Positions 5,645 to 48,069 of a stretch of DNA of 61,922 bases are shown in pieces. The DNA lies in IMG/VR virus record IMGVR_UViG_3300009678_000065, positions 1 to 61,922 of that record; one strand, given 5' to 3'. A model generated the notes under the pieces. The model searched no databases and was not told the DNA's origin. It was given only the letters and a program-made list of their open reading frames with translations. Numbering within the stretch: position 1 is the first letter of the stretch; each line of letters opens with the position of its first letter. Origin of the DNA: a virus. Taxonomy: Duplodnaviria > Caudoviricetes. Position numbers and translations under genes: made by a program.

Positions 5645-6192
5645 TTTTCCTCGGACGCGGTGGACTGAGAGATCTTCAGGACGCGACAGGGAGCCAATGA
5701 GTTCAGTTTGAAGCGGATGACCTCAACACCGTATTCGGCCAGCTCGCGCTGCGCGCCATTCTTGAGTTTGGTTTTGATGGTGCCCTTACGTTGTTCAGCG
5801 AGCAGGGCATCCCACGTCAAAGACGGTAGCACATCGCTCAGGGTCGTTGAAGCAATTTCCGCCACAGCGGTGTCGGCATCGTGAGTCGTGGTCAGTAGCT
5901 TGAGTAGGTCGGTCACTGAGTAGGTGAGCGTGCCACTGGCAATAAAAGTTTTGTTGTCGAGAGACACCATCGTTTGGGTCTCGATCGACACGGTCTGTCG
6001 GACGACTGGGAATTTATCAAAGTTGGAATTCCACGGCCACCACCACCACGCTTTCCCTGGAGCGCAGAAGACAGGGTCTTTTCCATTGACCGTATGGACA
6101 GCGCCCTCCGTGGTGTCGAGCACGACTCGGCGCGGGATGAACTGTCCAACCCACTCCGCAATCTGTCCGATCCAAGCGAGGGCGCTGTCCAT
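5641..6192 (-). CDS. SPFH/Band-7 domain protein
   Basis: QTVSIETQTMVSLDNKT..YSVTD..YGVEV pattern. Confidence 0.75.
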   Translation of the reverse strand: MDSALAWIGQIAEWVGQFIPRRVVLDTTEGAVHTVNGKDPVFCAPGKAWWWWPWNSNFDKFPVVRQTVSIETQTMVSLDNKTFIASGTLTYSVTDLLKLLTTTHDADTAVAEIASTTLSDVLPSLTWDALLAEQRKGTIKTKLKNGAQRELAEYGVEVIRFKLNSLAPCRVLKISQSTASEEK

Positions 6193-16253: not shown

Positions 16254-16639
16254 GAGTTCCAGGCTTTGTTTAGATCGATCCGTTTGGCCACGCGTGCTGC
16301 CATGAACGGTCTGGACTCCAAGAGAACACTTTCGATGTACTTCGCCTGTCCAACAGGATGATAGGCGTCAAGGTCTTCGTGAACGTAGATGGCGTAGGGC
16401 GCGGACGGCCCTCCAGCGACAATATTAGTCCAGACCGCATTGCCCTGTCGAGTAGGACCTTCCACATGTTCTGATGCACGAAGCTCACCAAACTCGACAG
16501 GTGTTCGTCGCTTAACTTCTTTAAGTTCGATCTGAGTCTCTTGATACAGTGCCTTGTCAGTCTGCTTCTGAAGATTACCCGCGAAGCGTCTGGCCTTGGC
16601 CGCAAATTGAGAGACTCCGTTAAGACTCGCTCCGGCCAC
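16250..16639 (-). CDS. HK97 gp10-like neck/tail completion protein
   Basis: KRRTPVEFGELRAS..YAIYVHE..GQAKYIE. Confidence 0.8.
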   Translation of the reverse strand: MAGASLNGVSQFAAKARRFAGNLQKQTDKALYQETQIELKEVKRRTPVEFGELRASEHVEGPTRQGNAVWTNIVAGGPSAPYAIYVHEDLDAYHPVGQAKYIESVLLESRPFMAARVAKRIDLNKAWNS

Positions 16640-17384
16640 GTGACTCTCTCCACTCGCGCAATTCCTTGTCGAGGTTGGCAGGGAGACGCTGCCCAACCTG
16701 TCGCCACCACACAGTCTCTTCAGCCACTTCCAAACAACGAGCTGATGCTACTGGTTCGATGACAGGGTTGGGATCGTCATAAGGCATCACGACGTTGACG
16801 TCTGCGGCAGCGAAAGGCTGCCCCGTTCTGATCGTCTCGTACTTCGCCGTGATCGCCTGCCGCTCCTCGCGGGTGCGAATGAGGAACACGTGGTGCTCAA
16901 GAAAGGCCGTTGCTGGCGCGCGGTAGGCCGGGTACGCGTGCGCGGCGTGGATCTTCACCGGGCGTCGGGACTGCCGCGCCACGCTCAAACGTGCCTGGAA
17001 GTCGGGGAAGTACGGCTGCTTGGCGATGCAATGCTGGACATCGGGCCACAGGTGCGCCCGCGAGAAGAACCAGGAGTCCCGACGAAACCACTCGTCGGTC
17101 TTCAACCAGTCGATCATGCCAGTTGAGCACCGTTCGTCGTCGTCAACCCGAAGGATGTAGTCGCCGGTGCAGGCGTCGAGAGCCTGATCGATCAGCTCTT
17201 CAAAGTACGATCCTTGGACCATGACATGCTTGATGTCATAGTCCTCCGCGAACCGCCGTGCGCGATCACCATGCGCGCCCAGGACAAACTCCGCGCCCAG
17301 CATGCGCGCCAGCATCTGAAATTCCAACAGGAACAACCTGGTGACCACTGTCGCATCACTGACGCACACGATACTGAGTTTCAT
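16620..17384 (-). CDS. GT-A fold (GT2-like) glycosyltransferase
   Basis: MKLSIVCV, ACTGDYILRVDDDE, PDFQARL. Confidence 0.78.
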   Translation of the reverse strand: MKLSIVCVSDATVVTRLFLLEFQMLARMLGAEFVLGAHGDRARRFAEDYDIKHVMVQGSYFEELIDQALDACTGDYILRVDDDERCSTGMIDWLKTDEWFRRDSWFFSRAHLWPDVQHCIAKQPYFPDFQARLSVARQSRRPVKIHAAHAYPAYRAPATAFLEHHVFLIRTREERQAITAKYETIRTGQPFAAADVNVVMPYDDPNPVIEPVASARCLEVAEETVWWRQVGQRLPANLDKELREWRESRGRSES

Positions 17385-18307
17385 TTGCTCTCCCGCACCA
17401 TCTGAGCTACTCGGTTGAAGTCGTCAGGAAACACTGCTCGATCATCGCGTCCGTCGATTAGCTGGAGGCCATGACCGTTTATTACGAAGTTCCAGGGCTG
17501 GACGTCGCCGTGCCTTTCGGCCGGGCGCGGGTACGACTCTACCATGCGCGCGACGTCCTCGCGCAGCGGAAAGGCCCCGCCCAGGCTGAGGAAGGTCTGC
17601 AGGTTGATGCCCGCGATCCAATTGCGCGTTTCGTTCTTGCGATGGAGCGTCACGATGCGCTGGCTTGGCGACGACAAGATGGTGACGCCACCCAACTCCA
17701 GATCATCGGGCGCGGTGAAGTACGCACGTCGGAGTGAGTTGCCGGGTGTCTCGAACAACCACATCGGCCGGTTGACCGGACCCACGTGGCTGGGCGTCTC
17801 GGCCAAGCGCGATGCCACCTGGCTATACAGCAGGTCGTAGATGTGCATGGCGTTGCTGTAGTTCAACGCCGATCCTTCACCGCTCGCGGGCGTCTCGATC
17901 ACCAGGTGGTCGCCCAGACGAAACAGCGACCGCAGCACGCTCTCGTATCGTTCAAAGTGGTGGACGACATTCAGCGCCAGCACCACGTCGAACTGTTCAC
18001 AGTTGGCTAGCTGCCACACGTCGTCCTCGCGCATGCGGTGCTTGAGGTGAAGGACGTTGGTCTTCTCGTTGGCTAGGCACTGGTAGAGCAAGCGCGGGTC
18101 GTCGTCGATCGCCACGATGGTGGCCTGTGGGAACTCCTCCGCGATCCGAAATGAGAAGTACCCGAGGGACGCGCCAAGGTCCAGCACGGTGAACGGCCGG
18201 GTGTACTTCGCCAGCAGCGGGCGCAGAGCCTCGTAACGGGACGCGCATTCGCGGACGCCGGTGCCCACGTTGCGGCCCTTCACCCACTGGTCTTGATACT
18301 GCTCCAT
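17381..18307 (-). CDS. SAM methyltransferase fused to kinase-like domain (WbdD-like)
   Basis: VLDLGASLGYFS, FDVVLALNVVHH; C-terminal RHGDVQPWNF..LID. Confidence 0.7.
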   Translation of the reverse strand: MEQYQDQWVKGRNVGTGVRECASRYEALRPLLAKYTRPFTVLDLGASLGYFSFRIAEEFPQATIVAIDDDPRLLYQCLANEKTNVLHLKHRMREDDVWQLANCEQFDVVLALNVVHHFERYESVLRSLFRLGDHLVIETPASGEGSALNYSNAMHIYDLLYSQVASRLAETPSHVGPVNRPMWLFETPGNSLRRAYFTAPDDLELGGVTILSSPSQRIVTLHRKNETRNWIAGINLQTFLSLGGAFPLREDVARMVESYPRPAERHGDVQPWNFVINGHGLQLIDGRDDRAVFPDDFNRVAQMVRESK

Positions 18308-18945
18308 CAGAGATACCTGTTCTTGAGCAGGACGTCGTCAGGAAAGACTTCAAGGACGCCGAATTCGGGCAGCATTTCCTTGATGCGGTTGAGCGTGGGC
18401 TGGCCCTCGTACATTTCCTCGTTGCTGTACTCGGTGTAAAAGTACCGAGTGCTTCTGAGTGTGCGCTGAGCACCCTGGATGAGATCCGCTTCCGCGCCCT
18501 GCACGTCGGCCCAGATCAAGTCAATGATCTGTCCCTCCATCTCGACCAGGGCCAGCGAGTCCAACCGCACCGATGGCACGGTGATCGACCGCTCGAACCG
18601 ACACCACGGGTACCGTCGTAGGTGGTTCTTCGGGCGACGAGTCGAACCGGAGTAGTGCCAGGTGAGGCCCGGCCACTGCGCCGTGGGTCGGCCATCGCTC
18701 TGGTGGAACGTCACCTCGCCATCCACTTGACCTACCGCCTTGGTGATCAGGCGGGCGCGCGGATCGGTCACGCGCTGGCGGAACAGTTCAGCAGCGTACG
18801 GTTCCGGCTCGAAGCTGTAGACGGTTGCGTACGGAAACAGGTCGAGGAACATCTGCGTGTGTTCCCCGTCGTTGCATCCGACGTCGAGGATCAACGGGTC
18901 CTCGCGTCGGATCAGCTCACGAATGCGCTCAGGCTTCAAGGGCAC
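18307..18945 (-). CDS. FkbM-family O-methyltransferase (NoeI-like)
   Basis: ILDVGCNDG, YSFEP, IDLIWADVQGAE, YTEY..MYEGQ. Confidence 0.88.
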   Translation of the reverse strand: MPLKPERIRELIRREDPLILDVGCNDGEHTQMFLDLFPYATVYSFEPEPYAAELFRQRVTDPRARLITKAVGQVDGEVTFHQSDGRPTAQWPGLTWHYSGSTRRPKNHLRRYPWCRFERSITVPSVRLDSLALVEMEGQIIDLIWADVQGAEADLIQGAQRTLRSTRYFYTEYSNEEMYEGQPTLNRIKEMLPEFGVLEVFPDDVLLKNRYL

Positions 18946-20101
18946 CCTCGATCGACTCCGCAAAGCGAGTCGCAATGTTGGTCCAGTTAAACCGTTCTTC
19001 GTTGGCCAGCAGCCAGCTTCGACGACCGAACTCCTCGCGCAACATCTCCGATCGGTAGAGCCTGTCGAGGGCATCGATGACATCCTTCTTCGCCGGGGCC
19101 GCGCCGATCATGCCGTTCACGTCGGGCATCACGCCCTCACTGTCGCAATCGGTGAGCCAGAAGGCGTCCTTGCCCCATTCCGCCAGGGCTGCAGTGCGCC
19201 CGGCCACAACCGGCAACCCGCAGGCTGCGGCCTCCAGGGCGGTCAACCCGAAGCCTTCGCCCAGGGCGGTGGTCAGATAGACGTTGGCTGCCTGGTAAGC
19301 AGCCGCGACGTACTTTTCCGGGGCACCGTTGTAGATGTCCTTCGGCGCAGCCAGGATCAATCGGTCCTCGACGCCATAGTACTTCGCCAGCTGGTCGCAG
19401 TCGATCGCAGCGGTGCTGCCCGGCAGGACGTGCATGTACAGATAGGCGTCTCGGATCTTGTTCGCGGTGATCCACTCCGCGAAGTAGATGATCGAGAGGT
19501 CGATGCGCTTGCGAGTCTGGTTGCGGTTGACGTTCACGACGATGAAAGAGTCGTCGGGCACGTCCGCATGGATGCCCAGCATGTGGCGCGCGGCCACGCG
19601 ATCACCGGGCTTGAAGACATCGGTGTCCACTCCCAACGGGATCACGTCGGTAGACACCTTCTTCTTGAGGCCACCTTTGATGGTCTCGTTGCGGCCGAAC
19701 TCCGTCCAGAAGATTGCCTTGGCCAGGCCGTTCAACTTTTCGCCGCCCACGTTCTTGCCCTCGACAGCGATGATGCCCACCAGCGGTGTCTCACCGTAGC
19801 CCTCGGCGTAGATCGCTCGACCGTACAGAGGTACGTGCCAGGGGTTGGTCTGCATGACGATCACGTCAGGTTTTGCCCGAGGAAGGACGTCGGACAAGCG
19901 GCCAATCCCGAGGGCATCCTTGCCCGGCCACGCTGGATAGATGTCGTACGTGCGCGGGGAGTCCACCATCGAGTCGCCGGTGAAGTTGACTCCGATGGCC
20001 GCGCACTTGAATCTGGTGGACAGGATCTTGAGGATTTGATCCGCTGCCCGGCCGAAGCCGCTGCTGCAGGACGCGTCACCGATGTACAGAAGAGACTTCA
20101 C
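18929..20101 (-). CDS. GT4 (GT-B) glycosyltransferase
   Basis: SGFGR, IPLGVDTDVF, NRNQTRKR, GEGFGLTALEAAACGLPVV. Confidence 0.9.
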   Translation of the reverse strand: MKSLLYIGDASCSSGFGRAADQILKILSTRFKCAAIGVNFTGDSMVDSPRTYDIYPAWPGKDALGIGRLSDVLPRAKPDVIVMQTNPWHVPLYGRAIYAEGYGETPLVGIIAVEGKNVGGEKLNGLAKAIFWTEFGRNETIKGGLKKKVSTDVIPLGVDTDVFKPGDRVAARHMLGIHADVPDDSFIVVNVNRNQTRKRIDLSIIYFAEWITANKIRDAYLYMHVLPGSTAAIDCDQLAKYYGVEDRLILAAPKDIYNGAPEKYVAAAYQAANVYLTTALGEGFGLTALEAAACGLPVVAGRTAALAEWGKDAFWLTDCDSEGVMPDVNGMIGAAPAKKDVIDALDRLYRSEMLREEFGRRSWLLANEERFNWTNIATRFAESIEGALEA

Positions 20102-20658
20102 AAAGCCACCCACTCCTTCGGAAAGCCTACGCGCACCACCTTATCAGCGTGCCAAGCCTTCGGATAGACGACGATCTTATTTGGATTCGGATTGAGATAC
20201 GCCGCCCACCATGAGAACGAGCTGTTGGCGATGATGTTGTGACGGCAGCTGGCCATCAAGTTCAGGTCTTCGATCTCGGTGCGCCCAGCCGAGTAGGTGT
20301 ATCGCTCTCCATACCACCGAGTCTTGCAGTACTCAATGTGATCGGAGAAGAATAGGAACCTGGTGTCGGTGGGGAACATCGCCATCGCTCTATCGTAGTA
20401 ATCCGTCTCCCACAGCTGGACGAACCCAGCGTGCTTGACATAGTCCCCGCGACGAATGTGAACCGCCACGAACGGTTCCTTCATTGGTTCGATGCCCTCG
20501 CTGAAGGCTTCCTTGATGTACTCCTCGGACCCGGCAAAGTGCTCCGGCGACTGCAGCCAGATGTCCGGGGTCAGACCACGACGCTGCTGCGCGTACAGGT
20601 ACGCCAGCTGAAACATTTGATTTCCCAACCGCCCGCTCATCAACCAGATCGGAATCAT
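20098..20658 (-). CDS. GT11 alpha-1,2-fucosyltransferase-like
   Basis: GRLGNQMFQ, VHIRRGDY, FSD, IIANSSFSWWAAYL. Confidence 0.9.
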   Translation of the reverse strand: MIPIWLMSGRLGNQMFQLAYLYAQQRRGLTPDIWLQSPEHFAGSEEYIKEAFSEGIEPMKEPFVAVHIRRGDYVKHAGFVQLWETDYYDRAMAMFPTDTRFLFFSDHIEYCKTRWYGERYTYSAGRTEIEDLNLMASCRHNIIANSSFSWWAAYLNPNPNKIVVYPKAWHADKVVRVGFPKEWVAL

Positions 20659-21302
20659 GTACGCCTCGCATGCACGACGACGCGATGGTCTTCGTGAACG
20701 GTTTCTGCAGTGAAGCCCACCATCTTCAGCCAGTGATGCACCAACGGAACGTTGGGACCGAAGAACTTATGGTGGAACGAGTTGGGATTGTCCGACTCCA
20801 TATAGACCAAGGCCGGGCGCGTCTCCGTAAAATGTTCACGGCCCTCTTGGCTGGCCGACGCGGTATACGTTTCCAGGATCAGGAGATCATCAACGACGCT
20901 GGCTACGCTTTCAAGGGCCAGCAGCGGGTGCCGCAGGTGGTAGAGCACGCCGAGAAAGAACACCACGTCGAACTTGCCGATGCGCTCCGGGGTGTGGTCT
21001 AGGATGTCGAGGTCGATCGCTTCGACCTTGGACCCGAGGGCTGCATGGGCGTAATCAAACCCAGCCTTGCCCGTGGACTGATGCCACATCCAATGGTCGG
21101 TCGCCACTACGCGCGCGGCCCCACGCTTCTCAGCTTCAAACGCGTAGAAGCCGTCCCAGGTACCGATGTCGAGCACCGATTTTCCGGTCAGGTCGGGCAG
21201 GCAGAGCTTTCGGACTTCGCCCTCGGGGAAGCAACGGCCAGGGGTGACCACCCCATCGCCCAGGTCGATGGAGTGCCACCAGTTGATGTCAGTAATTTTC
21301 AT
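20655..21302 (-). CDS. Class I SAM methyltransferase (CmoB/DUF1698-like)
   Basis: WWHSIDLG..VTPG, VLDIGTWDGFYAFEAEKRGA, FDVVFFLGVLYHL. Confidence 0.85.
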   Translation of the reverse strand: MKITDINWWHSIDLGDGVVTPGRCFPEGEVRKLCLPDLTGKSVLDIGTWDGFYAFEAEKRGAARVVATDHWMWHQSTGKAGFDYAHAALGSKVEAIDLDILDHTPERIGKFDVVFFLGVLYHLRHPLLALESVASVVDDLLILETYTASASQEGREHFTETRPALVYMESDNPNSFHHKFFGPNVPLVHHWLKMVGFTAETVHEDHRVVVHARRT

Positions 21303-21580
21303 GTCCTGACATCCTCCTCTTCGAGGAAGGATTTTAGATCCTTTCTGTAGTGAAACCACTCATTGTGAATTCGTAGATGAGCAAATCGTGTGTGAAAACT
21401 ATGCTCATCAGCAAGAGTGCCAGGCAGGAACAAAAGAACTTTTAGTGGATACGGACTATGTCGTCGAAATTCAACCATGCGGTCAACGCGATTTTTAGTG
21501 GTGAAGCCAATTTTCACTGCGTCGTTATTACACAGTACAAAATAGACATGACCCCTAGTTGTACCGCCACGAAAACCCAT
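21299..21580 (-). CDS. GIY-YIG (T5orf172-like) nuclease
   Basis: VYF..VKIGFT..E..H.RF..R..EWF; AT-rich. Confidence 0.8.
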   Translation of the reverse strand: MGFRGGTTRGHVYFVLCNNDAVKIGFTTKNRVDRMVEFRRHSPYPLKVLLFLPGTLADEHSFHTRFAHLRIHNEWFHYRKDLKSFLEEEDVRT

Positions 21581-22913: not shown

Positions 22914-23969
22914 TTACCCGTTGATGTGGCAAACGCCCGACCGACCCGCAGCGTCCGACCGGATCAGCGGAACGCCGATCGCAAACGCCTTGAAGTTGAT
23001 CTCGAAGCCACCGTACTCGTCCCACTGCACGGTCTGCAGCTGCTCGCCCTGGACCCAGCAGGTGACGTCCTGCGTAGCCTGAACGATGATCACGTTGCCC
23101 GAGGGCAGCTGGTCGGCCACGCGAATGGCCTTGATGCCCTCGATCTTTTCGAGACGCTCCCGAATGGTACCCGTCGAGTTCGTGCCAGCGGTTGGCACGT
23201 AATCGCCGTCGAGATGGACGCCCGCATCGGACGGAACGTACACCCAGAAGGGACCGAACATCCGGTTCGCGTGCAGCGCGGTGCGCGCGGCCTGAAGGTC
23301 AGCCAGGTAGCTCGGGCCGGTCTTCGTGCCATCGCCCCAGTCCTTGCCGCCGTCGAAGCTCACCGAGGTGACGCGGTCGGGCTGCGTCATGTAGCCGTAG
23401 ATCGGCAGCGAACCGAACTGCGGACCACCCTGGAACAGCATCTTTTCGAGCTGTTCCGCCACAACGCGGCCCGCCGTGCGGACCTGAGTCGTGTCGAGGG
23501 CTTCACCACGCTCCTTGGACGCCGCGAGGGCGCGCAGGTTGATGAAGAAGTCCTTGTGGGTAATCGGCAGCGGGATCTGCGACAGCTCGAACTCCTGACG
23601 ATCGTTGCCGGTGCGGCTGATGCCGTCCAGCGAGGTCGTCGCGGGGTCCATGTCCGTCACCTTCTCGTAGCCGAAGACCATCTTGCCCAGGGAGTTGGGC
23701 ACCGGACGCGTCAGGCCAGCAGCGACGAGGTCGCCAACGCCCACGAGCCGAATGACCGCTTCCTGTACGAGAGCGTCGTCGAAGAACTGCCAGTCCTCTT
23801 TGCGGAGCGTATCCAGCGTACGCAGTGCCGCAGCGTTGAGGGCGCGTCCTTCGGCCATCGCCTTCTTCAGCTGGGAGGTGGCCCAACGACCACCGGAACC
23901 GCTGAACAGCGCCTTGGCATCCGACATGAACGTCGGGGCCGGAGCTGACTTGCGTCGATTGGTTGCCAT
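22914..23969 (-). CDS. Major capsid protein, HK97 fold, Linocin-M18/encapsulin-like
   Basis: LRKEDWQFFDDALV, IPLPITHKDFFINLRALAAS, GRVVAEQLEKMLF, GPFWVYVP; follows protease and decoration genes. Confidence 0.85.
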   Translation of the reverse strand: MATNRRKSAPAPTFMSDAKALFSGSGGRWATSQLKKAMAEGRALNAAALRTLDTLRKEDWQFFDDALVQEAVIRLVGVGDLVAAGLTRPVPNSLGKMVFGYEKVTDMDPATTSLDGISRTGNDRQEFELSQIPLPITHKDFFINLRALAASKERGEALDTTQVRTAGRVVAEQLEKMLFQGGPQFGSLPIYGYMTQPDRVTSVSFDGGKDWGDGTKTGPSYLADLQAARTALHANRMFGPFWVYVPSDAGVHLDGDYVPTAGTNSTGTIRERLEKIEGIKAIRVADQLPSGNVIIVQATQDVTCWVQGEQLQTVQWDEYGGFEINFKAFAIGVPLIRSDAAGRSGVCHING

Positions 23970-24030
23970 GTTGCTTGTCTCCTATCTCTTCTCTGCGAAA
24001 AGTCCCCGATCAACCGGGAACGGGGTTGTC

Positions 24031-24468
24031 TTACAGGAACTGAACGCGGAGTGCGGTCTCGACCGCCACTGCGCCCAGGGTCTCCATCGCACGCGCGATG
24101 GGCTTGGTCGAGCCCTCGGCGTAGGTGCCGTCGCCTGCGCTCTGGAGCAGGTCGTCTTCGGAGATGTTCTGACCGGACGCGACGTAGCCCACGGCCTCTT
24201 CGCCCGACTTGAACACGCCGACCTTGACCCGGTCGCCAGACGCGTAGGCAGCCGCGCCCGCGTAGCTGCGGTAGGTGTCATCGATGCCCCGACCCAGCTC
24301 GTCGCGTTCCAGCGCCACCGCGTTGGGCACGCTGCCCGTGGTGCCGGTCTGCTTGAGCAGAGTCGTGACGCCCTTGACGAGGTAGCCCGGCTTGATTGCT
24401 TCGCCAGCCGACCCTTCCTCGCTCACAATCGGGGTACCCCGAAGGACGATTGAACGCTTGTTAGCCAT
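24031..24468 (-). CDS. Capsid decoration/cement protein
   Basis: AGEAIKPGYLV..YASGDRV..DLLQSAGDG; immediately upstream of the capsid gene. Confidence 0.7.
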   Translation of the reverse strand: MANKRSIVLRGTPIVSEEGSAGEAIKPGYLVKGVTTLLKQTGTTGSVPNAVALERDELGRGIDDTYRSYAGAAAYASGDRVKVGVFKSGEEAVGYVASGQNISEDDLLQSAGDGTYAEGSTKPIARAMETLGAVAVETALRVQFL

Positions 24469-24521
24469 TTCTCAGTCTCCTGTCTCTCTGAACCGTGTGA
24501 AAACGTTGTCCCGCCGCACTA

Positions 24522-24950
24522 TTACGGCAGGAAGATCTGACCGCCACTCGGCCGGATCGAGATGCTCGCTTCCTGAGCACCGTCAACCGGAGCCTTCAGA
24601 GCGATGTTGGTCACGAAGCCTGAGAACATCCAGGTCGCGCCATCGGGGAACTCGATGTCGTACTTGTCCTTCGAGCCAGTCGCCCATGCGTCGAGCAGCC
24701 CGGTGGATGCGTCGTGAGTCGCTTCGTCGAACGGCAGCCAGTTCACCATGAACTGCAGTTCGCCCTTGCGGCGGATACCGACGACGTACGAGTCGTCATC
24801 GGAGTTGTGGGTCGTCGTCTCAATCGGGTTACGGCTCAGAGGCGGAGGCGTGATGTCACGCAATTCCGCAACCGGAGTACCGTTCCGCTTGATGATCGTA
24901 CCGTGCGCGGAGATGCCGTTCGATTCCGCCCCGGTATTGATGACAGGCAT
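24522..24950 (-). CDS. Major tail tube protein (lambda gpV-like)
   Basis: VAELRDITPP.LSR..IETTTH..GIRRKGELQFMVNWLP..IEFPDG.TW.FSGFVT..SIRPSG; no other intact tube gene in the tail module. Confidence 0.85.
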   Translation of the reverse strand: MPVINTGAESNGISAHGTIIKRNGTPVAELRDITPPPLSRNPIETTTHNSDDDSYVVGIRRKGELQFMVNWLPFDEATHDASTGLLDAWATGSKDKYDIEFPDGATWMFSGFVTNIALKAPVDGAQEASISIRPSGGQIFLP

Positions 24951-24984
24951 GCTTTTCTTTACCTCTCTCGATTACCGGATGAAC

Positions 24985-26583
24985 TTACTTCTGACCGCGA
25001 GCGGCACGAATCTCCGCGCCGAGGTCCTTCGGTGCCGGGGCTTCGCCCGTCGCCGTTTCCGGCTGACGCGCACTGCCCTGCCCGCTGTAGTCGATGGCCG
25101 CACGCACGTTCGATCCGGCCAGCGCCACGAGCTGATCGAGATCAGCCTGCGACTTGGCGTTCAGCTGCTCGTCGGTCATCTGGCATCGGCCAGTGTCCTT
25201 GAGTGCCTTGATCGTGTTGGCCTTCTTGGCTGCCGACGCCGAACGAATCTCCGCGAACGAGTCGCGGACATCAGCCGGGGCCTTCGCCAGGAGGTCTTCG
25301 AGCGTCGGTTCCTTCACTTCCGCAGCGGCGGGCGCAGCGGCAGCAGCCGGGGCCGCAACGGGCGCGGCAGCGGCAGGGGTTTCGGTCGTTGCGGGCGCGG
25401 CGGGCGCGGCCGGGGTTTCCGGTGCGGCCGAGTGCGCCTCGAAACGAGCGAACTGCTCGTCGTTGGCCGCTTCGAGCATCGCTCGATCGGCTTCCGTGAA
25501 CACCTTGCTCTTGCCGATCAGAGCGGTGACTCGTTCTGCTTTCTGCATTGCCTTCTCCTCGATAGTGGGCTGTGGATGCTGACAAGAACACGGCTTGCCC
25601 GACGCCGCGACCTTGGGTTCGACGTCGCCAGCAGCCGTTACCGGCTCGTAGCGCGTCACTGCTTCGACTTCCGTTGGTTCGCCGTTGAGCGTCACCGCCC
25701 CATTGCTATCGAGGGTGAACGCCATGTCGTACAACTTGTAGGTGTACACGGGGTACACCTCGTATCCCGGACCCGGAGCGGGCGGGGCATAGTGGGAGCA
25801 GTTGAACACGACGTTGGTGGGGTTCTGCACCGGGTACCACGTATCCACGTAGGAACAGTTGGGGTACTTCGCTCGAACCGCCGTGTACAACTTGCTGCGG
25901 AGGTCGTTGTCGGTCATGTCTTCGGTGTTCATGAGCGACCGCAGCCCCGGCATCGCTGCCAGGACCCGCGCCATGAACCCACTCTCTGTCTTCACTGCGG
26001 CTCCTTTCGGTTTGCTTGCGGCACGAACACCGCAACCCATCTCGACGCTGCAAGCGCCCTCGTCGGTCTCGGGCAACAGAGCCAGGTGGTCGGGCATCAG
26101 CCCCGTCCACTTGCCCTTGTAGGACTTGCCCAGGTACGTGCCCTCGGTATCGTCGGTGGACACTTGCACACCAACGGAAATTTCGACGGCCTCACCGTCC
26201 TTGATGCGCTGAAGCAACTTTGGAGCGAGCTTCTCAGCACGCTCGACGTTGATCCAAGCCTCCATCGTGAGCTTGTCGTCCTTTGCCTTCGAGTTGAAGA
26301 CGATGCCGATCTGTTCAGCCTCCAACACCTCTGGGGTGTTGCCGAGGATCGGACGGCCGTCGCGCATCGGATGCCCGAGGAACACCGGGCGACCGTTCCA
26401 CCCGGCTGGCGCGCGTGAAAACTCCTCGGACGGCACGAACTCCGCATCCGTGGCGTTCATCGCGTGGACCACGCCCTCGACCAGCGCCACGACGGGCACG
26501 ACCAGGTGTTCCTGGTCGTTGTACCGCTCGGTGCGGACCTTATAGCCCTTGAGGGCGAGTAGCGTGCTGCGAGTAGCGGACAT
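24985..26583 (-). CDS. Prohead protease (DUF2213-like) / scaffold fusion
   Basis: VVPVVALVEGV, WNGRPVFLGHP, EISVG, PDHLALLP, GACS..GCG; Ala/Pro-rich scaffold C-terminus. Confidence 0.8.
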   Translation of the reverse strand: MSATRSTLLALKGYKVRTERYNDQEHLVVPVVALVEGVVHAMNATDAEFVPSEEFSRAPAGWNGRPVFLGHPMRDGRPILGNTPEVLEAEQIGIVFNSKAKDDKLTMEAWINVERAEKLAPKLLQRIKDGEAVEISVGVQVSTDDTEGTYLGKSYKGKWTGLMPDHLALLPETDEGACSVEMGCGVRAASKPKGAAVKTESGFMARVLAAMPGLRSLMNTEDMTDNDLRSKLYTAVRAKYPNCSYVDTWYPVQNPTNVVFNCSHYAPPAPGPGYEVYPVYTYKLYDMAFTLDSNGAVTLNGEPTEVEAVTRYEPVTAAGDVEPKVAASGKPCSCQHPQPTIEEKAMQKAERVTALIGKSKVFTEADRAMLEAANDEQFARFEAHSAAPETPAAPAAPATTETPAAAAPVAAPAAAAAPAAAEVKEPTLEDLLAKAPADVRDSFAEIRSASAAKKANTIKALKDTGRCQMTDEQLNAKSQADLDQLVALAGSNVRAAIDYSGQGSARQPETATGEAPAPKDLGAEIRAARGQK

Positions 26584-36194: not shown

Positions 36195-36490
36195 TACGCG
36201 TTGATCGGTGCGCCCATCACTTCAAAGTTGTGATTGGGCAGGTCCACCTTCGTGAGAAGATCCAGCCGCGTGAGCGGCGAGGGTTTCCCAACTGCCCGTC
36301 TGGTCTTGGGGTCGATCGCTTGCACCTTGACGTACGGCACGTTGCCGCTCCACGTTGGACGCACCGCGATCTCCAAGACGTGCGCCAGGGTGACCCAGAG
36401 GCTCGACGATTGCCGCCCTGGGTAGATGAGGTAGTCCCCGACCTTGATCGGTTTGCCGAGGACGTCGGTGACGACAAGCGGTTCGTTCAT
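36194..36490 (-). CDS. Small beta-barrel (SH3-like) hypothetical protein
   Basis: DVLGKPIKVGDY; coupled to neighbours. Confidence 0.55.
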   Translation of the reverse strand: MNEPLVVTDVLGKPIKVGDYLIYPGRQSSSLWVTLAHVLEIAVRPTWSGNVPYVKVQAIDPKTRRAVGKPSPLTRLDLLTKVDLPNHNFEVMGAPINA

Positions 36491-37059
36491 AGCGGGAGTA
36501 GCTCCTTGTTGGGCAGGTAGTTGAGCGTCATGGTGATCTCGCCCATCCGACGCAGGCCGGGGATCATCACCTGGTCTCGATCGGGCGTGCCACCGAATTG
36601 CCCGCCGTACGTCACGTCGATCATCTCCCGGTGCATGGACGGCGCGCTGATCGACTCCAGTTCCGCCACCACGACCCCATCGATCTCCAGCATCGTCGGC
36701 TTGGCCGAGCGAACCTTCGCAGCCCTACTTCGGGGTTCCCGAACAGGACGTGGGGCGGGGCATCGCACGCTGACCTCTTTGAATTCGCCTGTAGGCCGGA
36801 TGCCGATGTCCATTGTGGCCTGGCCGTCATCGGACTCGTTCATCGTCTGGTTGGTCACGAAGCCCATGAACTCGTAGCTGATGGTCTGGCCGTGCTCTTG
36901 GAAGGTGATCAGGAACTTCTTGACCCCATCTGCGAGAGCCGTTGGCGCAAGAACCGTGGGCGCTTCCGGCGCGAGGGCACGTTCGAGCACCACCTGCGGG
37001 TTGACCGCGAGGGCCGCGCCTGCGGCACCCATCCATTGGAGGAAGGTTCGGCGGTTCAT
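36487..37059 (-). CDS. Tat-signal protein that is a circular permutant of the tail tube protein
   Basis: MNRRTFL twin-arginine signal; aa ~42-91 align to tube aa ~87-136 and aa ~121-183 to tube aa ~17-73. Confidence 0.8.
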   Translation of the reverse strand: MNRRTFLQWMGAAGAALAVNPQVVLERALAPEAPTVLAPTALADGVKKFLITFQEHGQTISYEFMGFVTNQTMNESDDGQATMDIGIRPTGEFKEVSVRCPAPRPVREPRSRAAKVRSAKPTMLEIDGVVVAELESISAPSMHREMIDVTYGGQFGGTPDRDQVMIPGLRRMGEITMTLNYLPNKELLPL

Positions 37060-37969: not shown

Positions 37970-38572
37970 CTACCTCGCCCAGCCCGCGTCGATCGACGGG
38001 TTGGTGTCCTGGACACAGACTTCGTACTCAAACCCCAGGACCTTCTGGTTCGAGCGGTTCTCCATGCGCCGGATGACTCCGCGATAGAAGTCCTCCGCGC
38101 TGAAGGGACTGACCGACCGCTTGGTGAGGTACCAGCGGTTGCCGCGATACAGGTCGCGGCTCGACATCGGGATGTTGCCCAGCATCGGGCCTTCCAGCTT
38201 GACGTGGCACTCGTAGTACACCGGCCGCTCTTCGGCGGTCATGATGTTGACTTCGTGCTTGACCCGAACAACGCGCGCGTCCTTGTAGTCGGCCCCGAGC
38301 TTCTCGATCAACACTTCGGGGTCCTCGCCCAGGGCACACATCAGCTGCAAGTTCATGTTGTTCAGCTCGATGTGCAGCGGCTTGACGTCGAGGTCGTGGC
38401 AGAAGTTGAACCAGTCAATCGGGTTGATGTCCTCGACGGTGACGTGGTACTCCTCGATGCGTTCAGCGGGCTTGAAGGGGCTGTGATCACCCTTGTGGTT
38501 TTTGTCGAGGGCGCAGAGCACTAGCTCCGAACCCGCTTCGATCTTGAAGTCACACGTTTCACGCTTCGCCAT
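37970..38572 (-). CDS. Hypothetical protein with ExHV/RxKxE motifs
   Basis: EYHVTV, RVKHE, YYECHVK, EVCVQDTN..DAGW; TAATG coupling. Confidence 0.6.
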   Translation of the reverse strand: MAKRETCDFKIEAGSELVLCALDKNHKGDHSPFKPAERIEEYHVTVEDINPIDWFNFCHDLDVKPLHIELNNMNLQLMCALGEDPEVLIEKLGADYKDARVVRVKHEVNIMTAEERPVYYECHVKLEGPMLGNIPMSSRDLYRGNRWYLTKRSVSPFSAEDFYRGVIRRMENRSNQKVLGFEYEVCVQDTNPSIDAGWAR

Positions 38573-39012
38573 TAGTTTCTCCCAAAGACTCGGTAACGGG
38601 TTTCCACCATCCACACTCGGTCGGTCCCGAGTTCACGAAAGAAGTACACCGCGCCTGTAATCGTCACGGTGATGCGGTCGCGCCAGGTCTTCTCCCAGGC
38701 CACCGACCAGTCTTGCTCGAAGAACGTGCCGCCCTGCTTTAGATCGAACCACCAGGACCCGCTAACCGTGAAGTTGGCTACGCACATTTCCACGCCAGGC
38801 ACGGATGCGAGCGTCCATGTCCCGGTTGCGATGTTGTACACCCGGCCGTGGGTGGCGGTGAGGTCCAGCGTTTGCGCGCGGGCGGGCGTTGGTGCAAGAA
38901 CCAGGGCCAGCAGCACGCTGAGCAGGCAGATCTGGATGAAGCGCTTGGCAAGGAACACCAGCAGCTTGGCGGTGAGCAACCCGGCGACGACGGCGAGGAG
39001 GGGTGTCAACAT
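38572..39012 (-). CDS. Exported small beta-barrel-like (outer-membrane-type) protein
   Basis: Hydrophobic leader ending ARA-Q, then amphipathic aromatic beta-strands. Confidence 0.55.
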   Translation of the reverse strand: MLTPLLAVVAGLLTAKLLVFLAKRFIQICLLSVLLALVLAPTPARAQTLDLTATHGRVYNIATGTWTLASVPGVEMCVANFTVSGSWWFDLKQGGTFFEQDWSVAWEKTWRDRITVTITGAVYFFRELGTDRVWMVETRYRVFGRN

Positions 39013-39279
39013 TTGTGGTCTCGTGTTGGGAACGAACCCTACGGCTGCAAGCCCTGGTCCAGTTTGATCTCGTAGGGCTGGCCGTTGATGGTGACCCTGC
39101 AGCCACCGTACGTGAGCGTGGCCAGCGTGAACAGAATGCACACGACACCGATTGCACCGAGAAACGATTTCATCGACTCAACTCCTTCAAAGCCCGCGCG
39201 CAAATGTACGCGCGGATGGGATCGCAACACATCACCAGCACGTAGGCGACGGCCAGCGCAATGATCACGAGTGGAACGC

Positions 39280-41417: not shown

Positions 41418-42176
41418 TTAGTGTCGAAGGAACGTGACGTCGTTCTTGGTGCCCTTGAAGCAATAACCGCACGCTTCGCAATTCGGTTGACGCTTGGTCT
41501 CCTCCGGGCACACGTAGCTGGCACCGCCGTCGAGCGTGGCCAGGTTATGCGTCACTGGGTCCTCGGCGTGGGCGGCAACCTGCTGTGGCGTGCCGCCCCG
41601 TACGTCGCCGTCAATCCAGGCCCGACGCCAACCCGAAGGAGGCATCTCGGGGATCGATTCGTCCATCGACGCGAACATCTGCACGTTCGGCAGCGCCCGA
41701 AGGGTCTCCAGGTACGGGAGCAACTCAGCTACGCGCCAGGACCGGGTGTACACCCACATCGTGACGTCCGGCCGCTCCTTCATCCGGGTGATCCAGTTCT
41801 CGATGTACGATATCGAGTCGAAGTCACCGCTGACGTGCAGGCGTAGCAGCTTAGCGTCGGCGGGGATCTCCGGAACGTCCATGCCCCGATTGGCCCGCCA
41901 CATCTGTTCCACCGCGCCGTGCTCCTGGACTGGGCGCACCGCGTAGCAGATCTTGCGGCACTCCTCGCTCGACCCTGGGCAGGTTCCCGTGTCCTTCACG
42001 CCCCACGAACTCATGCGGCTGACGTCGAGACCCAACGCCGGTTGAGTATCGAGGCCGGGCATACGGGAGAACGTGTACACGCCCAAACCGATCTTGAGAT
42101 TGCCGCGACCGAACCGCGAGATGACTACCCCACGCGTATCCGGAATATGCACGACCAACTTGCCAGTAAGATCCAT
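41418..42176 (-). CDS. Gp88-like (radical-SAM-fold) protein
   Basis: GNLKIG, TCPG..C...CYA, RLHVSGDF, WVYTRSW, CPE..CEACGYC. Confidence 0.75.
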   Translation of the reverse strand: MDLTGKLVVHIPDTRGVVISRFGRGNLKIGLGVYTFSRMPGLDTQPALGLDVSRMSSWGVKDTGTCPGSSEECRKICYAVRPVQEHGAVEQMWRANRGMDVPEIPADAKLLRLHVSGDFDSISYIENWITRMKERPDVTMWVYTRSWRVAELLPYLETLRALPNVQMFASMDESIPEMPPSGWRRAWIDGDVRGGTPQQVAAHAEDPVTHNLATLDGGASYVCPEETKRQPNCEACGYCFKGTKNDVTFLRH

Positions 42177-42663
42177 AGATGCTCCGGTCCCAAGGACCCA
42201 GATAAGGGGCGGTCGCCCCGGTGAACGTGACGGTCGGCCCGTTGGGCAGTACGGGCGGGATCTGGGTTTCGTTGGGCCGCAGAATGTCTGCAGCCTGTTG
42301 TGGCGTGAGCGGTCGCGCCTGGGTGAACCTGATGACACCCTGGGCGAACGCCGGGGCCGACAAGAGCAGGAGCAATATCACCGGCGTGATCCTCGTGACG
42401 ATCCACTTCTTGGTGCCCTGGGGATCACCATGAGTCGTGACCTCGATCATCCGGCAGCCCTCCGGCACGTGCAAATGCAGAGCGACGTTTGCATCGCCCT
42501 CCCATTCAAACGACCTGGTGACAGCTACTCCGAGATGAACCTGTGCGATGTCGTCCGCAGGGAAGTCCATCTGAATGCGGGTGACGTCCTGAACGGGGTG
42601 ACCGTCCAGTTCGATGGCGGTGGCTCCGTGCGGCCCTGGTGTGCTGATCTTGACCTGACTCAT
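41851..42663 (-). CDS. Scrambled tail-tube-like N-terminal domain + signal/TM segment + low-complexity tail
   Basis: GGAGG RBS; HG.T.I...G.PV, VT.I....P.D and IEVTTH match segments of 24522..24950; PVILLLLLSAPAFAQ. Confidence 0.6.
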   Translation of the reverse strand: MSQVKISTPGPHGATAIELDGHPVQDVTRIQMDFPADDIAQVHLGVAVTRSFEWEGDANVALHLHVPEGCRMIEVTTHGDPQGTKKWIVTRITPVILLLLLSAPAFAQGVIRFTQARPLTPQQAADILRPNETQIPPVLPNGPTVTFTGATAPYLGPWDRSIYGSYWQVGRAYSGYAWGSHLAVRSRQSQDRFGRVHVLPYARPRYSTGVGSRRQPHEFVGREGHGNLPRVERGVPQDLLRGAPSPGARRGGTDVAGQSGHGRSGDPRRR

Positions 42664-42674
42664 GACTCCCTCCG

Positions 42675-43679
42675 TTATGCTGCCTTGTTGGTGTCGTAGT
42701 ACTCTTGCAACGCGTTCTTGATGCGGGTCTCCGCGATCGTGAAGTACTCGGCCTCCCGCTCGATGCCGATGTAGTTCCTGCCCTCTAGGACGGCTGCGAC
42801 TCCGCACGTGCCACTGCCCATGAACGGGTCAATGATCGTGCCTCCCGGCCGACTGACCAGACGGATCAACCGCCGCATCAGTTCGATGGGCTTCACGGTC
42901 GGATGAAAGTTCTGCGCCATGACGTCCTTGACGACCTTGCCCTTGGCGTTGGACGTCATGTGCGAGAGCCGGTTGTCCTTAACGACTTCCGGCAGATCGC
43001 CGCAGTAGGCGTCTCGATCCTTCGGGGACGGCTTCGGCACGAAGAACGAAGCCTTGTTCTCCATGACCATGCGCGCGAGATCTTCGTCGAGGGCCACGGC
43101 CTCCTCCGAGACCATCACGTTGGTCGGATGCTTGCCATCCTCTGCCTTCCAACCCTGGGCGTTCAGTTGGCCGCGTCCCGTCGTCTTGAACAACTTGTTC
43201 AAGTCCTTGAGGTTACCCATCTGACCCATGAACCTACCACACAGGATGGGTTCAAAGCCAGGCCGTGGGTCGTTGGGGTTCTTGACCTGGCCCGAGGCGT
43301 ACAACCAGGCGAACCCGCGTACGATGGGTAGCCCAGCCAGGCGGTAGCCGCGCCCGAGGAGGTCGAGCGTAGTGCTATCGGAGAAGGCCAGGACGTGCCC
43401 TCCAGCCCAGAGTCTGTCCATGACCCCGCGCACCCAGCCTTCGGTGAACTTGGCGAACGCTTCTGAGTCTTGCGACAGGTCGCCGCCACCCCGCTCGTCT
43501 TCAAAGGAATCCCAGTCCTTGGAACCTCCGAAGTCAAAGCCGTACGGCGGGTCGCACACGCAGGCATCGGCCTTGGAAATTTTGCCAGGCGTCGGGTACA
43601 TGCTTTTGAAGTCCATGTTGTTGAGGAGTTCCAAGCAATCCCCATTGTGCAAACTGATGACTAGTGGCTTTGCACTCAT
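42675..43679 (-). CDS. N6A/N4C DNA methyltransferase (beta class)
   Basis: GDCLE, CDPPY, HPTVKP, IIDPFMGSGT. Confidence 0.92.
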   Translation of the reverse strand: MSAKPLVISLHNGDCLELLNNMDFKSMYPTPGKISKADACVCDPPYGFDFGGSKDWDSFEDERGGGDLSQDSEAFAKFTEGWVRGVMDRLWAGGHVLAFSDSTTLDLLGRGYRLAGLPIVRGFAWLYASGQVKNPNDPRPGFEPILCGRFMGQMGNLKDLNKLFKTTGRGQLNAQGWKAEDGKHPTNVMVSEEAVALDEDLARMVMENKASFFVPKPSPKDRDAYCGDLPEVVKDNRLSHMTSNAKGKVVKDVMAQNFHPTVKPIELMRRLIRLVSRPGGTIIDPFMGSGTCGVAAVLEGRNYIGIEREAEYFTIAETRIKNALQEYYDTNKAA

Positions 43680-46402: not shown

Positions 46403-48069
46403 CAGCCTTCGTCCTGTAGCTTCTGACGCCAGGTGGCCGTGGTCCACTGAGCAATGTCATCCTTGCCGCGAAGGGCCGCGAGGATATGATGGTCGATGGT
46501 ACGCTGGCCTTTGGGGCCGGTGGCGACCACGTCCACGTACTGAATCTTCTCCGTTTGGCCTGGCCGGTCAATGCGCCCGCGTGCCTGCAGGAACACCCGA
46601 AGGTTAAAGTCGTGGCTCAGGTTCACGGCCATGCTGGCACCCGAGAGGTTGAGGGCCGCGCCGCCCGCCTGTGGGCTGCCGACCACGCCGTTCTTGCGGT
46701 CGGGGATGATGGCCGGGTTCAACGCGCGCACGGCCAGCTCACGCTCGGCCTTCTTCTGCCCGCCGTACAGCAGGAACATCTCGCGGTCCAGGTGTCTCTT
46801 CGGGGACCCAGGCTCGAACGCCGCAGCGCAACGCTCGATCTCCTTGCGGAAGCGTGCCCACACCAACAGCCTGGGGGGTAAAGGATCGATGTGCGACAGC
46901 CAATCGAGAAACCCATCGAGCTTCTCGCGGCCGATCTCCTTGGTTTCCGCTTCAACTAGCGCTGGGATGAATCCACTCTCCTCATCGATCAAGTCGTCGA
47001 GGCTGGCCATCTCCGGGTCCACGCCCTCCATCGACATGTCAAACTCACGGATGCCACCAAGGTAGCCGCTGGTGATCTGGGCCAGGCGCAGGCCGCGCAC
47101 GATCGCTTGCTGCGTCATGCTGGCCTTGGAGATTCCCGAGCCGTCGTCGATCCATGCGAGCATGTTGTCTCGCATGTCCCTGTACATTTTCCAGGTGGTT
47201 TTATCGTCGAGCTTGGCCTCCACCATCACTGGATCAAGAATATCCGGTAGGTCGAAGCACTCTCGAGTCTTTCGTCGCAGCACGTGCGGAGCGACCTTGG
47301 CGCGCAACTCCTCCAGATTCTGCCATCCGACGATCATGGGGAAGTTGACGTTGGGCTTCAGCAACGCATAGTGCTGACGGAAGCGGGTCGTGGAGGTAGA
47401 GATCTTACTGCGGCCAAAGCGGTCCCGGTACTCGAACCCGAGAATGCTGTCGTCCAGCATCTTCATCTGGGCGTTAAGATCCATCGGGTTGTCAGCGATG
47501 GGAGTGCCGTTCAACAGGGTGACCCGCTTGGCCATCTTGCGTATCGTGTACGCTGCCTTGAACTGGACCGCGCCCTGGTCCTTGAGCATCCATGATTCGT
47601 CGCAGACCAACCAGAACCTACGCAGGGCCAGGTACTTGAGCAGAGGATGGAGACGCTCTTCGCGTCGGACGAATTCATAGTTGGTCACCAGCCATCGTAG
47701 AAACGTGTCTTCGTCGGTGCGTGAACCGTGGATGCCTCGCTGCACCCGCAGGTCCGGGTTGGCGATCGAGTACTCTCGGCAAGCGTACGGCACCGTGGGC
47801 CAGCTGTGCTTGGCGATTTCGCCCAGGGCCGGGTCCGGGTTGGCCCACACACCTCGCGCGAACGCCGGGCAGAGCACCAGGATCAGGTCCAGTTCACCAG
47901 CCTCGAACAGCAACTGGGCCGCGTCAATAATCTGTTTCGTCTTACCGCATCCGACCTCGTCGGCAAGCAGGAAGATGTCTCGCTCGACGAGAGCGAACAC
48001 TCCGTCCCTCTGATGTTGCTTCGGCGGGTACGTGCATCGGTGTTCCCAGGAGGTGGTTGTGGTCGTCAT
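46402..48069 (-). CDS. SNF2-family SF2 helicase
   Basis: LADEVGCGKT, VCDESW, LNGTPI, QARGRIDRPGQ. Confidence 0.92.
   Translation of the reverse strand: MTTTTTSWEHRCTYPPKQHQRDGVFALVERDIFLLADEVGCGKTKQIIDAAQLLFEAGELDLILVLCPAFARGVWANPDPALGEIAKHSWPTVPYACREYSIANPDLRVQRGIHGSRTDEDTFLRWLVTNYEFVRREERLHPLLKYLALRRFWLVCDESWMLKDQGAVQFKAAYTIRKMAKRVTLLNGTPIADNPMDLNAQMKMLDDSILGFEYRDRFGRSKISTSTTRFRQHYALLKPNVNFPMIVGWQNLEELRAKVAPHVLRRKTRECFDLPDILDPVMVEAKLDDKTTWKMYRDMRDNMLAWIDDGSGISKASMTQQAIVRGLRLAQITSGYLGGIREFDMSMEGVDPEMASLDDLIDEESGFIPALVEAETKEIGREKLDGFLDWLSHIDPLPPRLLVWARFRKEIERCAAAFEPGSPKRHLDREMFLLYGGQKKAERELAVRALNPAIIPDRKNGVVGSPQAGGAALNLSGASMAVNLSHDFNLRVFLQARGRIDRPGQTEKIQYVDVVATGPKGQRTIDHHILAALRGKDDIAQWTTATWRQKLQDEG

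Follow-up and report, generated by a model that had tools for sequence, protein, structure and literature searches.

The open reading frame (ORF) P0001 of the virus record IMGVR_UViG_3300009678_000065 is probably a fusion of two genes that are kept separate in related phages. The record is complete, has 61,922 bases and 60% G+C, carries nearly all of its genes on the minus strand, and is referred to here as the window. By its sequence, P0001 is predicted to encode a single-pass membrane protein, in which the core of an N-terminal all-beta domain (module 1) has its origin in a tail-tube gene and is followed by an internal Sec-type signal sequence and a short exported peptide (module 2). The likelihood given to this reading covers the architecture and origin of P0001, not its function. 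The reference for the comparisons is the window's own 142 amino acid (aa) protein of the tail-tube family, called the tube below. The positions of all features are collected in Table 1.

Likeness of module 1 to the tail tube protein

Module 1 was compared with the tube by hhalign, using a profile of 31 homologs (A4) and iterative masking for successive matches. The three best local matches are the same three pairs of segments that had been picked out by eye in the first-pass annotation (segments A, B and C in Table 1), with the second-best covering tube 113–140. Their scores sum to 63.3. As controls, 103 chunks of approximately 142 aa were cut out of 48 further ORFs of the window. The best single score of these chunks has a mean of 10.7 and a maximum of 19.7, while the sum of three is 28.0±4.0 with a maximum of 44.4; none of the 103 reaches the sum obtained with the tube. 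Likewise, none of 300 shuffled tubes reaches 26.0, the highest being 18.9. Segment A, when aligned to a profile of the tube, scores 27.9 (P 4.9e-4, probability 32%).

These matches do not depend on the close relatives of P0001. With the window's clade removed, the remaining 26 distant homologs return the same three segments at 26.2, 22.5 and 13.4, against a maximum control sum of 35.0 from 47 structural-module chunks. A HMMER profile of the distant homologs, searched against 50 window proteins, places the tube first at 13.4 bits and its Tat (twin-arginine translocation) paralog, described below, second at 6.0; the next protein scores 1.9. Single homologs can also be matched to the tube by BLASTP. 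In P0021, aa 17–38 correspond to tube 12–33 (12 of 22 residues identical, E 2e-5) and aa 35–53 to tube 113–131 (11 of 19 identical, E 4e-5), the two matches sharing four P0021 residues. P0014 matches tube 2–33 (E 0.006).

Eight independent GenBank tube proteins, 26–35% identical to the tube of the window, were tested in addition. Their sums range from 29.9 to 51.0, with a mean of 38.7 compared to 30.5 for the reversed sequences, and the forward sequence scores higher in seven of the eight (Wilcoxon P 0.02). Two of the eight lie above the control maximum. The best matches recur at the equivalent segments (N-terminal, C-terminal and 'IE.T.H'), and the equivalent of segment C is among the best three in three of the eight proteins.

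Several results weigh against a tube origin. For the window protein alone, the best BLASTP match to the tube has an E of 0.75 and lies on a different pair of segments. Its Smith-Waterman score of 29 is reached by 30% of 2000 shuffles (26.7±4.6), and its three best ungapped segments, taken in any order, sum to 75, which 7% of 1000 shuffles reach (64.9±6.1). The hhalign probabilities are only 24–32% for the first piece and 3% for the second. P0021 was chosen after the inspection of 31 sequences, and a 31-fold correction leaves both of its matches near 1e-3. The third match is weak and also out of order, and a tandem tube, used to look for a longer colinear match across the permuted junction, gave none. 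None of the 36 family members matches the tube Pfam models at E≤1, and the AlphaFold model of aa 1–94 has a predicted template-modelling score (pTM) of only 0.49. The tube is itself only a putative working tail tube, because it lies in a head-gene block and neither a tape-measure gene nor another tube gene was recognised.

The three-segment likeness that had been proposed on reading the window sequence is therefore lost when that sequence is taken alone, since shuffles reach it, and is upheld for the family as a whole, with the third match weak in its own right. The description of the strands as scrambled fares less well. Both significant matches run in the order of the tube, 14–34 before 113–140, and only the weak third is out of order. 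Because the strong matches are colinear and abut on a short motif that is present twice in the tube, a single internal deletion of approximately tube 34–116 explains them without any scrambling. The conclusion drawn from these comparisons is that the conserved core of module 1 (approximately aa 13–50) is likely to descend from a tube-family gene.

Fold and family comparisons

AlphaFold models aa 1–94 as seven strands without a helix, at a predicted local distance difference test score (pLDDT) of 83.1. No tube fold match was found for this model or for a model of 166 aa, and the latter matches nothing in PDB or BFVD. The window protein has no Pfam (at E≤1), PHROGs or NCBIfam family. It does not belong to the tube Pfam families PF16461 and PF16460 and does not have the complete tube fold. 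Homology to a bona fide tube was found for two segments (tube 12–33 and 113–131/140), not for tube 35–112, and the gene lies between a DNA methylase gene and a gene of the GP88 family in the replication block, not among virion tail genes. The term tube 'mimic', as used in the first-pass annotation, goes too far for a protein in which some 60 of the 142 tube residues are matched and for which neither the Pfam models nor the predicted structures return a tube. Module 1 is a fragmentary derivative of the tube and not a tube fold, and 'mimic' is a hypothesis.

Outside its own family, module 1 has few relatives. There is no tblastn match at E≤0.1 in GenBank phages and no relative in two scans of species-representative genomes. 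The PDB profile search gives, at best, a flavivirus envelope domain III (E 0.84–0.92). In the ESM Atlas the 166 aa have no usable match, and aa 1–94 match only unnamed viral clusters at 0.79–0.81, which are leads only. The PHROGs family phrog_10282 (67 aa, no function assigned) matches 3 of the 36 family members on the hairpin motif. An ORF of 69 aa at 1831..2040 (+) of the viral locus L011, just after a methylase gene, was considered as a mini module 1. It shares a '..TLDG.P.E.V' motif but was rejected, as its profile match (P 0.034) is not significant.

The two modules and their fusion

When 1.84 billion representatives were searched exhaustively with HMMER, 33 matches were returned. Module 1 alone (aa 1–94) is matched by 29, module 2 alone by three, and one (P0004) is fused. 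The 29 sequences are 67–135 aa long and lack the hydrophobic segment, a few have Cys-rich tails, and their E values range from 1e-31 to 8e-4. Some may be fragments from contig ends, such as P0003 on a 1.1-kb contig. Membership of P0001 in this family is evident from full-length HMMER similarity and from the consensus GTxIExDGxEVxDVxDIxLxFPVDG ... HLHVPEG. The second family is represented by P0019 (E 7e-7), P0022 (E 3e-6) and P0029 (E 2e-4), matched by aa 84–161 in HMMER, and by an ORF of L011 that matches a seven-sequence profile at E 5.5e-7. In P0019, which was not found in viral contigs, module 2 follows an unrelated N-terminus of 85 aa.

The fusion of the tube-like part to a signal or transmembrane segment, as first proposed, is confirmed. 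It is present as one open frame and is kept in five distinct sequences, those of the window, L001, L004, P0002 and P0036. Identity to the window is 71% for L001, 62–65% for P0002 and approximately 50% for P0036 (of which P0004 is a fragment); L004 is a variant of L001. A search with module 1 through viral and metagenome contigs recovered no phage other than that of L001 and a near variant of it. Elsewhere the modules occur singly. In L006, a gene for module 1 alone (109 aa) is flanked by methylase genes on one side and by GP88 on the other, and it overlaps GP88 by 14 nucleotides (nt). L011 has a stand-alone module 2 directly upstream of GP88. This gene is preceded by its own GAAGGAGGGAG and starts with an ATG; its product begins with a signal peptide that ends in AYA before QQ, and the gene runs into GP88. 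Neither module is present in four of the seven viral loci that carry GP88.

The idea of a membrane tether is supported for the window's clade, where the fusion is kept, and does not extend to the family, since 29 of the 33 matches have no membrane segment. As the tube-like module mostly stands alone without such a segment, the tether is best seen as a clade-specific fusion to a pre-existing gene for a secreted protein.

Reading frame and coding evidence

P0001 directly follows a DNA methylase gene (42675..43679; PF01555, E 6.7e-27). The Shine-Dalgarno motif GGAGGGAG that precedes its ATG also precedes the ATG of L001 and that of the stand-alone module-2 gene in L011. From ATG 42663 the frame is open through the hydrophobic stretch, with no stop until 41851, and the four peptides cited in the first-pass annotation all lie where they had been placed in this one minus-strand frame. 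The V codon before the hydrophobic segment had been read as GTC. This is correct for V89 (in WIVTR), while V95, inside PVILLL, is GTG and is a possible start codon. The V95 position is T in the homolog P0036, hence a start is not conserved there.

Third-position G+C (GC3) is 0.65–0.95 in the P0001 frame down to approximately 42210, where the GP88 frame takes over. In comparison with L001, third positions account for 45 of 72 substitutions in aa 1–93 and for seven of nine in the hydrophobic stretch. The ratio of nonsynonymous to synonymous substitution rates (dN/dS) is 0.10 for aa 1–93, 0.07 for aa 94–108 and 0.42 for aa 109–160. P0001 is a real gene of the early region under purifying selection.

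Predicted signal sequence and exported module

By sequence rule, the segment that follows module 1 has the features of a Sec signal: a charged n-region, a core of at least 10 residues (aa 92–104), and small residues at –3 and –1. P104 stands directly before the cleavage motif, the hydrophobic segment reaches an average Kyte-Doolittle value of 1.97 across 19 aa, and aa 95–113 are modelled as a helix by AlphaFold. A-x-[AG]-Q is kept in seven of the eight module-2 sequences. The signal is not N-terminal, as it starts at approximately aa 85 behind a domain of 90 aa; in the L011 homolog it is N-terminal.

Topology and cleavage of Sec signals follow the positive-inside and –3/–1 rules. Module 2 is most likely exported, because the signal is N-terminal in the stand-alone homolog. 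With the signal internal in the fusion, N-in/C-out insertion is expected, which would leave module 1 on the cytoplasmic side. It counts against this part of the reading that the predicted topology, and the predicted cleavage after A107, are drawn from such general sequence rules. The Arg-rich tail beyond module 2, with a net charge of +12, would also count against export of the C-terminus if the tail is really made.

Elsewhere in the early region, the ORF at 38572..39141 (–) contains hydrophobic stretches together with a site resembling A-x-A-Q (APTPARAQT). Its product may likewise be exported or lie in the membrane.

A second tube derivative in the window

The genome also encodes a Tat-signal protein that is a circular permutant of the tube. 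By hhalign, tube 14–76 corresponds to its aa 118–186 (probability 95.2%, P 2.7e-8) and tube 87–136 to its aa 40–91 (probability 71.7%, P 3.5e-5). The claim that a second tube derivative is present in the same genome therefore stands, and independent recruitment of tube pieces is plausible. As a circular permutant exists, the two ends of the tube should lie close together, and a sheet formed of the N- and C-terminal hairpins would therefore be structurally plausible.

P0001 could have arisen by one internal deletion between the two similar short motifs of the tube, which would join the N-terminal hairpin (approximately tube 2–34) to the C-terminal hairpin (113 to approximately 135). About 40 residues of uncertain origin follow this core in module 1. 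The module would then have been fused to module 2, that is, to a Sec-type signal with an AxA site before Q and a Pro-rich exported peptide of approximately 52 aa. In the resulting protein the tube-derived module would be at the cytoplasmic face of the membrane with module 2 outside, and a cut by signal peptidase I after A107 would release module 2.

Possible functions and alternative explanations

Of the functions considered, the one ranked first, tentatively and at a low probability, is a decoy or competitor role, in which the tube-like hairpins would occupy a factor that recognises tubes; a partnership with GP88 and action on incoming tails follow in that order. The decoy role is placed first because the tube-like part is the conserved part, because most members are without a signal, and because the gene occupies a variable early slot beside a methylase gene. 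The exact coincidence of the conserved part with the tube-like part suggests a common binding partner. The fuller proposal is decidedly less probable: that the tube gene has been turned into non-virion proteins at least twice, and that module 1 is an early decoy, membrane-anchored in the window's clade, which titrates a host tube sensor or the assembly or ejection machinery of a competitor phage. To our knowledge, neither anti-defence decoys nor superinfection-exclusion proteins have a defining sequence feature.

It is also rather unlikely that P0001 gives two products, with an internal start (ATG M72 or GTG V95) or cleavage by signal peptidase yielding a secreted module 2 that acts alone, so that the fusion is incidental. 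A GGAGGG is found 7 nt upstream of ATG M72, and in L001 the TTG at the same place is likewise preceded by one, although this need not be a signal because conserved P-E-G codons of module 1 make it. Window and L001 share the GTG codon of V95, but V95 is the residue replaced in P0036, and a start there leaves no charged n-region. The conserved AxA-Q site and the stand-alone module 2 of L011 agree with a separate role for module 2; against this, the fusion is kept over approximately 50% divergence and dN/dS is at its lowest, 0.07, across the junction.

A role of module 1 as a partner of GP88, with the fusion tethering a GP88-linked process to the membrane, is judged equally unlikely. Module 1 is found immediately upstream of GP88 in three lineages, in L006 with the 14-nt overlap, and in comparison with L001 module 1 forms a single diverged cassette with the first two thirds of GP88. 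The two families nevertheless differ greatly in abundance, with GP88 in 416 clusters (E≤1e-10) and module 1 among only 33 representatives, and the majority of the viral GP88 loci are without either module. It also counts against this reading that GP88 itself has no NCBIfam or PDB match and belongs to a family (PF17338) named in no paper.

Two separate segments that each score above the best of the 103 control chunks, the two P0021 matches at E of approximately 1e-5, the seven of eight tubes that outscore their own reversed sequences, and the first and second ranks of the tube and its paralog among 50 proteins together make it improbable that the tube likeness is chance or convergence between beta-hairpins with DG-type turns. 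Module 1 would in that case be unrelated to the tube and P0001 an uncharacterised early membrane protein, as might be argued from the failure of the pairwise tests on the window sequence, from the lack of a fold match with hhalign probabilities of at most 32%, and from the similar hairpin motif in other small phage proteins (phrog_10282 and the 69-aa ORF of L011). The least probable is a working tube mimic at the membrane that engages the tails or ejection proteins of incoming phages in superinfection exclusion, beside the Tat-exported permutant; this would suit the tube-derived core, which is better conserved than any other part of the family, the membrane anchor, the early-region position, the second exported tube derivative and the diverged cassette in near-identical genomes, as expected for an arms-race locus, but the order of parts puts the tube-like module in the cytoplasm and not the periplasm, 29 of 33 relatives are without the anchor, only some 60 tube residues are matched, and the absence of an integrase among the part of the ORFs that was scanned leaves no obvious lysogen to protect.

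Relation to known systems

With the lambda-like tail tube (PF16461/PF16460; phrog_158), module 1 shares the N- and C-terminal hairpins, P0021 being 55–58% identical over 22 and 19 residues. In contrast to that family, it lacks tube residues 35–112 or thereabouts, which comprise the long hairpin, the helix and the middle strands, it carries approximately 40 extra residues with a HxHxHVPEGC motif, and it is encoded in a replication and modification block instead of with virion genes. The Tat permutant is similar to P0001 in being tube-derived, in its early-region position and in having an export signal. It keeps nearly the whole tube (14–76 and 87–136) in swapped order, whereas P0001 has only the two terminal hairpins, and its signal is an N-terminal Tat signal while that of P0001 is of the Sec type, internal, and placed after the tube-like part.

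Distal tail proteins, domains of baseplate hubs and the Hcp protein of type VI secretion systems are paralogs with the tube fold, and they keep the whole fold and work within injection machines. Reuse of the fold is common to these and to module 1, yet module 1 is fragmentary and in a non-virion gene block. Duplication of the tube fold into parts of injection machines is thus already known, and an internally deleted, fragmentary derivative differs from it. HK97 gp15 and TP-J34 Ltp are small membrane or secreted proteins of siphophages, from prophages, that cause superinfection exclusion. P0001 resembles them by description, as a small envelope protein outside the virion genes; no integrase is seen among the ORFs scanned here. 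Literature joining tail tube proteins, superinfection exclusion and mimics contains no tube mimic in titles and the opening parts of abstracts.

DSR2 is a host defence protein that senses tail tube proteins, and DSAD1 is its phage inhibitor (PMC10981675). That hosts sense tubes and that phages carry early counter-proteins is the logic of the decoy reading, although the parallel is by analogy only, and the word 'mimic' has no occurrence in that article.

If the proposed origin is correct, virion genes also feed the pool of phage accessory 'dark matter' genes. The derivative would be kept as a family whose members are small and early, with one clade of it welded to an export signal. A tube-derived decoy, if real, would be a new kind of counter-defence, given the host sensing of tube proteins noted above. 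Together with the Tat permutant, P0001 offers a concrete and testable case of tube-gene recycling in one lineage. Through P0001, two hitherto unnamed protein families become accessible for the first time, as does the variable slot upstream of GP88 in an abundant group of environmental phages.

Table 1. Coordinates of P0001, its parts and the related genes of the window
Feature	Coordinates	Strand	Characteristics
P0001, whole open frame	41851..42663	–	270 aa plus stop; ATG 42663, TAA at 41851
Shine-Dalgarno sequence GGAGGGAG	42666..42673	–	ends 2 nt before ATG 42663
Module 1, aa 1–93	42385..42663	–	all-beta domain of an unnamed phage family; HMMER, AlphaFold, dN/dS 0.10
Segment A, aa 13–31	42571..42627	–	like tube N-terminal hairpin (tube 14–34); hhalign 26.0, P 8.5e-4
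Segment B, aa 27–47	42523..42585	–	like tube C-terminal hairpin (tube 113–133); hhalign 22.3, P 0.004; overlaps A on aa 27–31
Segment C, aa 73–89	42397..42447	–	weakly like tube 43–57; hhalign 15.0, P 0.086
Predicted internal Sec-type signal sequence, aa 85–108	42340..42409	–	K85, K86, R91; hydrophobic core; A105-F-A107, then Q108 after the predicted cut
Module 2 (aa 84–160), predicted exported part, aa 109–160	42184..42339	–	Pro-rich; conserved LTPxQAAxI, GPxV, LGPW[DE]; dN/dS 0.42; homologs P0019, P0022, P0029, L011
Arg-rich tail, aa 161–270 plus stop	41851..42183	–	read-through in an alternative frame of GP88
GP88-family gene (PF17338)	41418..42176	–	Pfam E 8.8e-20; Shine-Dalgarno GGAG; ATG 42176, +1 frame
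Mosaic cassette	41626..42666	–	63–87% identical to L001; flanks 96–100% identical
Tube, 142 aa, lambda-like tail-tube family	24522..24950	–	PF16461 E 1.9e-11; phrog_158 'major tail protein' E 5.3e-16
Tat-signal protein, 190 aa, circular permutant of tube	36487..37059	–	PF10518 E 1.1e-5; hhalign

The Arg-rich tail and GP88

The frames of P0001 and GP88 overlap by 326 nt. The 110 aa of the tail include 19 K and R residues. In the tail region, 40 of the 77 substitutions relative to L001 fall on third positions of GP88. Stops in the alternative frame occur genome-wide at 2.6% per codon, for which the probability of no stop in 108 codons is 0.058, and synonymous resampling gives P values of 0.08 for the window and 0.03 for L001 for the tail frame being open. 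Selection for the open frame was rejected despite these values, as in L006 the same alternative frame is open over GP88 codons 5–108 with no gene that uses it. The tail is therefore regarded, from the sequences, as a probable unselected by-product of reading into GP88 in a stop-poor frame. No slippery site for a programmed frameshift into GP88 was seen when the sequence was inspected by eye.

Module-2 genes always extend 76–112 codons into GP88 in the alternative frame (window 41851..42176 (–), L001 6494..6834, L011 2501..2730). The overlap in L011 takes in the conserved GxPW motif of module 2, so at least some 20 codons may be dual-coding there.

In L001, L006 and L011 alike, the gene next downstream of module 1 or of module 2 is GP88. 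Across 33 sequences the GP88 family has the invariant Cys clusters GTCPG..EC...CYA and CPEET.....C..C..C and a HVSGDF motif. Distant relatives, approximately 27% identical, are present in Streptomyces and Mycobacterium phages. Searches of NCBIfam and PDB with GP88 gave no match, and in the available parts of the literature PF17338 is not named, 'gp88' there being a phage-specific gene number.

The mosaic cassette of 1,040 nt consists of P0001 and the first two thirds of GP88; within a 9-kb stretch that is otherwise 93–100% identical to L001, no patch is more diverged. Synonymous divergence (dS) is approximately 1 within it. As a diverged patch in near-identical surroundings, the cassette has evidently been exchanged by recombination. 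A second patch that is diverged from L001 is located in the SNF2 helicase gene, at 46862..47311.

Genome context

The genes surrounding P0001 encode a SNF2 helicase, an endonuclease VII, a DUF4031 protein, a Pam3 gp34-like protein, an exonuclease, a family A DNA polymerase, a primase and a GH24 lysozyme. No integrase was found in a scan that took in part of the ORFs. The tube gene is in the head-gene block (with its neighbours at 22914..26583), between a protease/scaffold-like ORF of 532 aa and the decoration-like and capsid genes. It is the only gene of the tail-tube family recognised; the region downstream of the Ad1 adaptor showed no recognisable gene for a tape measure, a sheath or another tube. 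With 330 tube clusters beside the 416 GP88 clusters (E≤1e-10), this group of phages is abundant.

Glycosyltransferase- and methyltransferase-like genes lie inside the structural block at 16620..21359 (–), between the head-tail adaptor and the ORFs of 947 and 1232 aa. A SPFH/Band 7 protein (PF01145, E 3.4e-19) is encoded at 5641..6192 (–), near the lysozyme gene.

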